Shown piece by piece: positions 51,346 through 53,142 of a stretch of DNA of 54,139 nucleotides. The DNA is taken from the NCBI GenBank assembly GCA_900318745.1, contig ONMC01000011.1, positions 1 to 54,139 on the forward strand, in the 5' to 3' direction. Position numbers and translations under genes: made by a program. Source of the stretch: an uncultured Eubacteriales bacterium (lineage in GTDB: Bacteria > Bacillota > Clostridia > Christensenellales > CAG-138). The notes beneath the pieces are model-generated. The model made no database searches. It saw only the letters and a list, made by a program, of their open reading frames with translations, and was not told where the DNA came from. The stretch's first letter is position 1. The number at the start of each line of letters is the position of its first letter.

Positions 51346-51563
51346 TTACCAGCGGCGCCTTGCACAGCGGCAGGAAGGCGCGCTGCGGCCGTTTTTGATC
51401 GCCTGCATGATTTCAAGACACTCGCCGAAGCGCTGATAGTGCACGATCTCGCGCTCGCGCAAAAAGTACAGCGGCTCGATGATCTGGCTGTTCGAGGTCA
51501 TGTTCATCAGGTGTTCGTACGTTGCACGCGCCTTCTGCTCGGCTGCACCTTGCGATGCGCTAC
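51346..51563 (-). pseudogene. cotJC: 3' fragment (about the last 65-70 codons) of a CotJC/manganese-catalase-family gene
   Basis: Not in the ORF track because it lacks a start codon. The minus frame reads ...SASQGAAEQKARATYEHLMNMTSNSQIIEPLYFLREREIVHYQRFGECLEIMQAIKNG...*, with TAA at 51346-51348. Only the C-terminal third of the family is represented. Confidence 0.7.
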
Positions 51564-51588
51564 ATTTTGGGGCTTTACGTGCACATTT

Positions 51589-53142
51589 TCAGAAATTCCA
51601 GTGAATTTCGATCAATTGCTCGGATGTTTTGGGAACGCGCCTGCCGATGCGAACATAGTCAATCAGCGTTTCAACAATCGGGCGATTGAGGCTCTCAAAC
51701 GCGGTATAGCGGTCGATCAGTTCTTTTCGATGATCTCCTTCGATCGCTTGCTGATCCAGTAAATCAAGCTGCTTTGTTAGCTTCTGAATTTGCTTTTCCG
51801 CACGACTGCGATCGTCCGAAAGTCCTTTTGCCAATTCCGCGAAATCCGGATCGGAAAGATATCCGCGCACCTTATCCATATAGAGACTGCGCAAACCCTT
51901 GCTGTATTCCTCGACACGCTTTTGATATGCTTCGAGATCGGCTTGCAGGCGTTCTTTTTGCCGCTTCAGATCCTGTTGAAACTCCACCTTCTGCAGCAAT
52001 TCATCTTTGTCAAGATAGGTGTCAGATAGGCGATGCAGCTCATTCAATACGGTTTGCTCAACTTTTTTGACAGAGACAAAGGTTCCGGGACAGGAATCCT
52101 GCGCAACATGATGGTTGGGGCACTCCAAATAATACATTCCGTGACACTTATGAGATCGCAGAGTATAACCGCAATATGCGCATCGTGCCTTCTTTGCGAA
52201 CAGTCCGATCTGACCGCCGGAGAATGGCTTTGCCTTTGCTTTCAGCATCAACTGCACGGTATCCCACAGTTCACGGTCGATGATAGGCTCGTGCGTGCCT
52301 TCCACCACATACCATTGATCCCTTGGTCTTGGTTTGTTTTGTTTCGTTTTGTAGGAGATGCTGCCATATTTGCCCTGCACCATGTTTCCGATGTAGATTT
52401 CATTTGTCAGCATATCGGCGATTGCAAAGTACTTCCAGAAAGTACTATTTTTGCTTTTCGGTCCCTTGTAGCGAAGTCCTTTCTGGCGTTTATACTCGGT
52501 TGGATTCGGGATCCCGCGATCATTCAGCATGCGGGCAATCGCTGTTTTTCCATAGCCCTGCGCAAACAGAGAGAATACCTCCCGCACGACTGCAGCAGCT
52601 TCTTCATCGATCAACAGATGACCTTTTTGATCGGGATCCTTCCGATAACCGTAGAGCGCAAATGCCCCGATGTGATATCCGTTTACGCGGCGATTGGTAA
52701 GAACGCTGCGAATGTTATCCGACATATCCTCCAGATACCATTCGTTGACAAGGCCGTTGATCTGTCGGGATTTCTTGTTTCCCTTGTTTGCGGTGTCCGC
52801 ATTGTCAACAATGCTGACAAATCGGATGCCCCACATGGGGAAGAGCCCATGGATGTACTTTTCAACCAGTTCCAGCTCTCTGGTAAAGCGTGATTGAGTC
52901 TTGCAGAGAACGATGTCAAACTTTTTTGCCTCGGCGTCTTTCAAAAGCTGTTGGAATGCCGGACGCCGCCGATCCGATCCGGTGTAATCATCATCACTGT
53001 AGATTCTGTAAACATCCCACCCTTGTTCCTGTGCGTATTGCGACAGCATCAGCTTTTGATTTTGAATACTGTTGCTGTCGTCGGTCTCAAATTGTTTATT
53101 TCTATCTTCTTCGGATAGGCGACAATAGATTGCGGTTTTCAT
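51589..53142 (-). CDS. Large serine recombinase (resolvase/invertase N-terminal domain + recombinase domain + zinc ribbon + coiled-coil C-terminus)
   Basis: ATG 53142 follows GAAGGAGG. MKTAIYCRLSEEDR (catalytic Ser motif). Zinc ribbon CAYCGYTLRSHKCHGMYYLECPNHH. TnpX/TndX-like C-terminus ending IEIHWNF. Confidence 0.92.
   Translation of the reverse strand: MKTAIYCRLSEEDRNKQFETDDSNSIQNQKLMLSQYAQEQGWDVYRIYSDDDYTGSDRRRPAFQQLLKDAEAKKFDIVLCKTQSRFTRELELVEKYIHGLFPMWGIRFVSIVDNADTANKGNKKSRQINGLVNEWYLEDMSDNIRSVLTNRRVNGYHIGAFALYGYRKDPDQKGHLLIDEEAAAVVREVFSLFAQGYGKTAIARMLNDRGIPNPTEYKRQKGLRYKGPKSKNSTFWKYFAIADMLTNEIYIGNMVQGKYGSISYKTKQNKPRPRDQWYVVEGTHEPIIDRELWDTVQLMLKAKAKPFSGGQIGLFAKKARCAYCGYTLRSHKCHGMYYLECPNHHVAQDSCPGTFVSVKKVEQTVLNELHRLSDTYLDKDELLQKVEFQQDLKRQKERLQADLEAYQKRVEEYSKGLRSLYMDKVRGYLSDPDFAELAKGLSDDRSRAEKQIQKLTKQLDLLDQQAIEGDHRKELIDRYTAFESLNRPIVETLIDYVRIGRRVPKTSEQLIEIHWNF

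Follow-up and report, generated by a model that had tools for sequence, protein, structure and literature searches.

Several sporulation genes are known to be split by inserted elements. In the pairs skin/sigK, SPbeta/spsM, vfbin/spoVFB, vrin/spoVR, gin/gerE and yin/yabG the element lies within a sporulation open reading frame (ORF) and has, at its edge, the gene for a serine recombinase accompanied by a small ORF, and the hosts are Bacillus or Clostridium sensu stricto. A second group is formed by Tn5397 and Tn4451, whose recombinases TndX and TnpX have a DUF4368 tail, use a GA crossover dinucleotide and are encoded at the element end. We analysed a window of 54,139 nucleotides (the whole of the stretch studied, positions 1 to 54,139 of contig ONMC01000011.1, assembly GCA_900318745.1) from the uncultured gut Clostridia lineage CAG-138. 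Here the 3' part of the sporulation gene cotJC, which is expressed in the mother cell in B. subtilis, directly adjoins a gene for a large serine recombinase (LSR), and the locus has features of both groups. Type of event aside, which is already known, the insertion is real and well defined. On balance we favour an ordinary, horizontally spreading mobile element, for which the repair of cotJC would be an incidental by-product and no programmed developmental step. The features are listed in Table 1.

Table 1. Features at the cotJC junction and at the right end of the window.
Feature	Position	Strand	Basis and remarks
Terminator-like hairpin and T-run	51307..51321	-	3' of the cotJC stop; consensus scan
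cotJC 3' fragment	51346..51540	-	Codons 136-199 (51349-51540) and stop (51346-51348); translation, Pfam, nt/aa identity to intact cotJC
attR	51515..51564	-	P arm 51541-51564 (TGTAGCGCATCGCAAGGTGCAGCC), GA core, host-side B' arm 51515-51538
Inferred crossover dinucleotide GA, centre of attR	51539..51540	-	attL/attR/attB comparison and symmetry centre of attP
Conserved recombination module, ~2.07 kb	51541..53612	-	Shared at ~95% nt identity with the complete sister element, up to 53612 (blastn and alignment)
LSR gene, 517 aa, TnpX/TndX type	51589..53142	-	Pfam, PHROG, PDB match, TndX identity
Sigma-70-like promoter, extended -10 (TTGATT, 16-nt spacer, TG-n-TACAAT)	53182..53209	-	Just upstream of the LSR gene; consensus scan
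orf52, 52 aa, directly upstream of the LSR gene	53206..53364	-	96-100% conserved in every module copy
MazF/PemK-like toxin gene, 5'-truncated	53444..53825	-	Pfam PemK_toxin, profile positions 43-107 only; PHROG MazF-like growth inhibitor
azlC 3' end and azlD (start 53910, cut by the window end)	53826..54139	+	Pfam AzlD

An earlier interpretation of the window (below, the sequence-only reading) knew of no characterised cotJC-splitting element of this type. For experimental work this seems right: no experimental study of a cotJC element (att sites, recombinase family, excision data) was found in the searchable literature. However, Abe et al. 2013 (Mol Microbiol 90:415), as far as this is relayed in bioRxiv 10.1101/2021.11.22.469490, had named the gene among the places where phage- or transposon-related elements often integrate, and the present case resembles those integrations in its target gene and its phage- or transposon-related nature. 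The phi027 prophage of C. difficile adjoins a CotJC homologue without splitting it.

The minus-strand frame that leaves the recombinase TGA (51589-51591) reads F, stop, KCARKAPKCSASQGAAEQKARATYEHLMNMTSNSQIIEPLYFLREREIVHYQRFGECLEIMQAIKNGRSAPSCRCARRRW, stop. The sequence-only reading had taken the frame from 51346 to about 51563 for the C-terminal third of a CotJC/Mn-catalase protein, continuous with the TGA of a 517-aa LSR, and both the translation and the searches bear this out. The fragment matches the Pfam family Mn_catalase (PF05067) with an E value of 1.2e-9 and 38.1 bits (gathering threshold 27), only over positions 148-198 of the 284 in the profile. In a tblastn comparison (E 7e-34) spanning 58 aa, it shows 96.6% identity to residues 134-191 of a close relative's intact 199-aa CotJC. 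Homology to CotJC/Mn-catalase, on which that reading hinged, is significant by both Pfam and tblastn, and judged by these scores the match is far above chance. The N-terminal part is lacking as described: the 54-kb window contains no cotJA, cotJB or 5' cotJC. The fall in GC content near the junction was also real, from 0.58-0.60 at 51200-51499 to 0.43-0.52 right of approximately 51550. The position of the junction had to be moved, from approximately 51563 to a host/element boundary at 51540/51539, the residues QGAA before EQKAR being encoded by the element and resembling the DMAA of the host. The hairpin 3' of the cotJC stop is the probable end of the cotJ operon.

Three att sites define the inferred crossover. 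In brief, attR of the window is TGTAGCGCATCGCAAGGTGCAGCC-GA-GCAGAAGGCGCGTGCAACG, attL from contig JAFOTD010000023.1 of the sister metagenome-assembled genome (MAG) GCA_017388175.1 is GACATGGCAGCC-GA-TGCTGCAACCAGCGATTCGCTACC, and attB from an intact cotJC in a relative (locus L052, GTDB MAG, JAFRUN010000036.1) is GACATGGCGGCG-GA-GCAGAAGGCGCGCGCGACC; all three align on GA. The reconstructed attP, for which the left end of the sister element was used and the window supplied attR only, has 24-nt arms that are complementary at 18 of 24 positions around GA, and the attB arms are without symmetry. Compared with the P' arms at the left junctions of sister elements, the P arm of the window is complementary at 17-18 of 24 positions; among random flanks a fraction of 1e-4 reaches at least 17/24. 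Imperfect inverted repeats around a shared dinucleotide, which the sequence-only reading had suggested looking for in attL and attR, are thus present, and attB could be defined by alignment with relatives as it had proposed. The codon for Glu136, one of 199 in cotJC, begins with the two bases of the GA core; this codon lies within the motif EDMAA/EQKAR (slash at the junction), and cotJC is therefore split into 135 and 64 residues. Because the exchange is at a 2-bp core, precise excision would rejoin the gene in frame and without a scar. The predicted left junction of the copy in this genome is GAGGACATGGCNGCN-GA-TGCTGCAACCAG, or GAGGACATGGCNGCN-GA-TGCTGCAACCAGYGATTCGCTACC with cotJA-cotJB before it.

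The LSR gene starts with an ATG at 53142 preceded by a GGAGG ribosome-binding site. Its product has the Pfam domains Resolvase (PF00239), Recombinase (PF07508), Zn_ribbon_recom (PF13408) and DUF4368, all above their cut-offs (25.5 bits for the DUF4368 tail, cut-off 25), which confirms that an LSR adjoins the fragment. The N-terminus, IYCRLSEEDR, has the conserved Arg/Ser motif. The protein matches the PHROG integrase family phrog_95 (E 8e-100), and its best PDB match is the catalytic domain of TnpX (E 8.8e-17); the best LSRs in phage records are at most 41% identical to it. The gene is the last of the element, located at its very edge and oriented as cotJC. Domain set, crossover dinucleotide and gene position are all as in Tn5397/TndX and Tn4451/TnpX, whereas the LSRs of skin-type elements are of the SpoIVCA/SprA type. 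TndX, which likewise has a GA core, is reported to be needed, and to suffice, for integration and for excision (PMC4430133). Both systems target a conserved coding motif, cotJC here and Fic-domain DNA for Tn5397. The present LSR differs from annotated TndX in its identity of only approximately 30% over the full length, in its cotJC target and in the conserved 52-aa ORF that accompanies it.

Comparison with relatives separates the element from its host. The cotJA-cotJB-cotJC operon is intact in L052. Positions 51365-51546 of the window are 90.7% identical at the nucleotide level to the cotJC of L052, the similarity ending at 51546, and a C69 peptidase gene located approximately 3.5 kb downstream of that cotJC is 84.7% identical to the one in the window. 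In locus L003, 2283 of 2285 bases of the element part are identical to the window, whereas the cotJC 3' piece is only approximately 70% identical and the DNA downstream cannot be aligned; the two sequences diverge only on the host side of GA. L003 has this same element at the identical codon of cotJC, within another host. The identical LSR protein is encoded on six metagenome contigs, L003 among them.

The contig of the sister MAG carries, in this order, cotJA, cotJB, a gene for a 152-aa product (CotJC residues 1-135 with 17 residues of read-through), then an element of 11,498 bp and finally the 3' piece of cotJC. Its module is approximately 95% identical to that of the window and its host part 85%. 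By these identities the element is much less diverged, that is younger, than its hosts. The cotJA-cotJB-cotJC context is split in L132-L157 and L293, and in sample ERZ28019060 the 5' and 3' junctions both occur, on separate contigs. The same junction is found in at least seven independent assemblies. The proposal of the sequence-only reading that cotJC is split by an element integrated in the same orientation is upheld by the attB of L052, the second host L003 and the two halves in the sister MAG. Its suggestion to locate the 5' part with cotJA and cotJB succeeded for the sister, where both halves surround the 11,498-bp element; for this genome no 5' half could be located. Insertion, site, att structure, module and horizontal spread can all be read from these alignments.

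The continuous frame from the LSR stop, and the resemblance of the element-encoded QGAA to the host DMAA, could suggest that there is no insertion, but a cotJC-like piece carried within the element, or a chance or assembly artefact. We regard this as very improbable. In L003 the fragment has changed along with the host and the element has remained identical, the DNA is close to that of the intact gene in L052, which also has the C69 peptidase gene, and the junction recurs across independent assemblies. A cotJC fragment as cargo of the element was ruled out by the L003 comparison.

How common the split state is was estimated from protein searches. With a 135-aa query most close homologues are intact (194-200 aa), and among the 120 clusters listed approximately 12 end at the EDMAA/E junction ("site 2"). 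The proteins P0386, which is split, and P0387, which is intact, are identical over their first 135 residues; split and intact states therefore occur among near-identical cotJC alleles. It should be noted that the homologue search returns proteins of approximately the query length, and short queries therefore enrich for gene fragments. The idea that most cotJC genes are split was rejected as a product of this length bias, the 135-aa query having shown that intact genes dominate. A profile search of genome contigs with a CotJC alignment gave intact genes only, and with them attB; its seed ED[ML]AAEQK spans the junction and the ranking favours full matches.

The conserved module consists of attR, the LSR gene, orf52 and approximately 250 bp upstream. 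The complete sister element (JAFOTD010000023.1, approximately 64.6-76.1 kb; L146 and L151) encodes orf52, a 61-aa ORF, the LSR and, as its only sizeable cargo, one 2880-aa beta-helix/Flg_new/fn3 surface protein. Pfam searches gave neither transfer nor phage genes in these 11,498 bp, and in being without phage genes the element is like gin. The backbone of the window lineage, seen in L002, encodes a MazF/PemK-like toxin and a sigma-70-like protein, together with two HTH proteins, one XRE-type and one HTH_17. At the left end only the first ~170 bp are conserved across copies, and beyond these the backbones differ. In other copies the left end has ParA and ParB together with a thioester/SpaA adhesin and DUF3846, or it has a relaxase fusion, an N6/N4 methylase or an insertion sequence (IS) element; the ParA/ParB/adhesin type resembles an integrative and conjugative element. 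A prophage was also considered and rejected; neither the 5.9 kb beside the LSR in L002 nor the sister element gave phage structural, packaging or lysis hits in PHROG or Pfam.

As these alignments indicate, the ~2-kb unit of att site, LSR and orf52 is a portable recombination module on several backbones. It resembles the interchangeable units attL-int-rdf-attR of Suzuki et al. 2019/2020 (PMC6957869), with one ~2-kb module on unrelated backbones; their exchangeability was shown experimentally in B. subtilis, whereas here it is suggested by sequence comparison only. No Pfam or PHROG family matched orf52, and a weak homologue in the corresponding position (39% over 28 aa) is located upstream of the 72-73% identical LSRs in L013-L019. 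We consider orf52 a candidate accessory or directionality factor.

A viral collection yielded 38 loci with LSRs of 64-84% identity to ours. At 31 of them a catalase-gene fragment cut at EDMAA/E directly adjoins the LSR, and most of these 31 fragments are inverted in orientation. The element-side residues before the same junction differ between lineages (QGAAEQ, CSYAVVPEQ and ECCVYAIAAEQ), and several element families therefore use the EDMAA/E site. At one of these 31 loci, L027, the LSR is 72% identical to ours and stands where a Tn916/Tn5397-like conjugation module (AAA_10, lysozyme/NlpC-P60 and TcpC) ends, as in Tn5397-type systems. For L027 at least, one of the IMG/VR loci L012-L047, the filing as "viral" looks wrong. 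Positions 1-9200 of L027 encode a VirB4-like AAA_10 protein, an NlpC/P60 lysozyme and TcpC, followed by GntR/ABC cargo. For L048, with the closest LSR relative in the viral collection (84% over the first 247 residues), Pfam gave no match.

In our favoured reading, a TnpX/TndX-type LSR would have inserted the element at the GA in the Glu136 codon, leaving cotJC as two intact halves, and excision by the same LSR would rejoin these in frame and without a scar. The most conserved stretch of a dispensable gene expressed in the mother cell would be a safe landing site, and excision would serve transfer, with the repair of cotJC as a by-product. Activity of the LSR, excision and the absence of developmental timing we infer; the young element, the polymorphic alleles, the conjugative relatives of the LSR and the TnpX/TndX enzyme type lead us away from a skin-like system.

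In such a system the element would be kept in the germ-line chromosome of the forespore and excised in the mother cell, rebuilding cotJC for coat assembly, possibly with orf52 as directionality factor of the LSR, as in skin/sigK, SPbeta/spsM, gin/gerE and yin/yabG. We consider this possible, if distinctly less probable. The target is a sporulation gene, which lies in a cotJ operon in relatives, and its expression in the mother cell of B. subtilis would fit. In the sister MAG the two halves are retained, undisrupted and in frame, such that precise excision would restore the ORF as in the known intervening elements. In every tested case that was found, excision is linked to sporulation. The small conserved ORF beside the LSR is located where known units hold directionality factors (PMC6957869). 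Against this, TndX-type enzymes need no directionality factor (PMC4430133), the relatives of the LSR are integrases of conjugative transposons, and the element is far younger than the divergence of its hosts and polymorphic within a species. In contrast to skin-type elements, the present one clearly spreads between species. B. subtilis cotJC mutants have no obvious sporulation defect, to the extent that PMC12122855 cites this, and selection for reconstitution would therefore be weak.

The promoter region gives indirect hints against the skin-like system. The promoter before the LSR gene is sigma-70-like, and a B. subtilis consensus detected no sigmaE- or sigmaK-like -10 motif in the DNA upstream of either gene, orf52 or LSR, which is weak evidence given where the consensus comes from. 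The promoter itself is a lead only, the number of such sites in the region being not above chance.

Several observations weigh against the ordinary mobile element that we favour. Most experimentally tested elements that split sporulation genes of the mother cell do excise during sporulation (PMC4191935, PMC5595907, PMC10747680), a precedent for the skin-like alternative. The minimal 11.5-kb version without transfer genes recurs in several samples with both cotJC halves intact, as in skin- and gin-type elements. The element is present on all five contigs that carry the neighbouring Big_2 gene of this species, which would also fit a fixed, domesticated element. Look-ups of exact proteins, namely the Big_2 product, the 53-aa fragment and a number of 5'-fragment clusters, did not reach the 5' cotJC half or the left end of the copy in this genome, because metagenome contigs break inside the element. 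A free attP form was not found in a weak search, whose 18-base core pattern was too short and gave chance hits only. Finally, the breakpoint at 53825/53826 may be a real rearrangement or a chimeric contig end.

This breakpoint bears on a further alternative, in which the window holds a dead remnant: the remainder of the element, perhaps along with the 5' part of cotJC, would have been lost through a deletion or rearrangement that stranded the LSR end and left cotJC permanently inactive. The window is 100% identical to L001-L005 up to 53825 and unrelated beyond, and at 53825/53826 the 5'-truncated toxin gene is fused with the final codons of azlC, after which comes azlD. The window is also without 5' cotJC. 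We nevertheless find this explanation unlikely. The five other assemblies of the locus run normally through the toxin gene, which is intact with 174 aa in L001-L004, and none of them matches the last 314 bases of the window, an odd tail that is typical of a chimeric metagenome contig. Genes azlCD are absent from every fetched locus, including the surroundings of cotJ in relatives, and no damage is seen in the LSR, orf52 or attR.

A second insertion hot spot in cotJC was observed at the motif GTEE/(M/L)AHWEM (L008-L011, approximately 5960-6402; L006, 9980-10010). The serine recombinase that uses it is an unrelated one of 530 aa, with 23% identity to the LSR of the window, and is located directly upstream of the remaining 133-aa part of cotJC. 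The 133-aa fragment protein occurs in 89 blocks of the collection, on contigs of up to 723 kb. We also found cotJC/catalase middle pieces that are cut at both sites, with a different recombinase element on each side (L006 10001-10303, L007, L020, L022, L027, L038, L039, L041 and L047), which indicates double or nested occupation of one gene. Proteins P0066 (Clostridium chromiireducens) and P0076 (C. beijerinckii) are annotated as CotJC C-terminal proteins of 82-88 aa that begin at another truncation point, ...GNPWTA(A/T)YIQAKGD, and could represent a third site or pseudogenes.

The two highly conserved motifs TEE-AH and AAEQKAR of CotJC are presumably metal-ligand motifs. We tentatively raise the idea, about as doubtful as the skin-like system, that cotJC is a programmed rearranged gene, its recombinase/orf52 module domesticated (for example in the 11.5-kb element) and excised in the mother cell at each sporulation, with cotJC rebuilt as a result. 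Two unrelated recombinase lineages would then have converged on these two motifs, and cotJC would be a general switch point in the interplay of elements and hosts among gut spore formers.

Two further observations concern conserved parts of the element. The conserved ~170 bp at the left end (L132/L133/L146, 10406-10580) contain an imperfect hairpin (GCTACCTCATAAGAACAAC...GAAGGTAGG) and the motif CATAC(A/G)AGAAAT. The Cys-rich tail of the MazF-like ORF (CSRC...CCICGNPHG; 53444-53612, with a matching stretch in JAFOTD010000023.1) is kept in the module even without the toxin domain, and could be a small domain in its own right or else have a regulatory role.

With this locus, cotJC joins the short list of split sporulation genes, with att sites, crossover dinucleotide and recombinase family defined, and the case comes from uncultured gut Clostridia, in which spore formation is what drives transmission. 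The locus is also a natural case of a single recombination module that moves among conjugative, minimal and integrative and conjugative element (ICE)-like backbones. The highly conserved and repeatedly used landing site is of interest for the ecology of mobile elements and as a source of site-specific integrases. Current concepts would remain unchanged unless developmental excision were shown.

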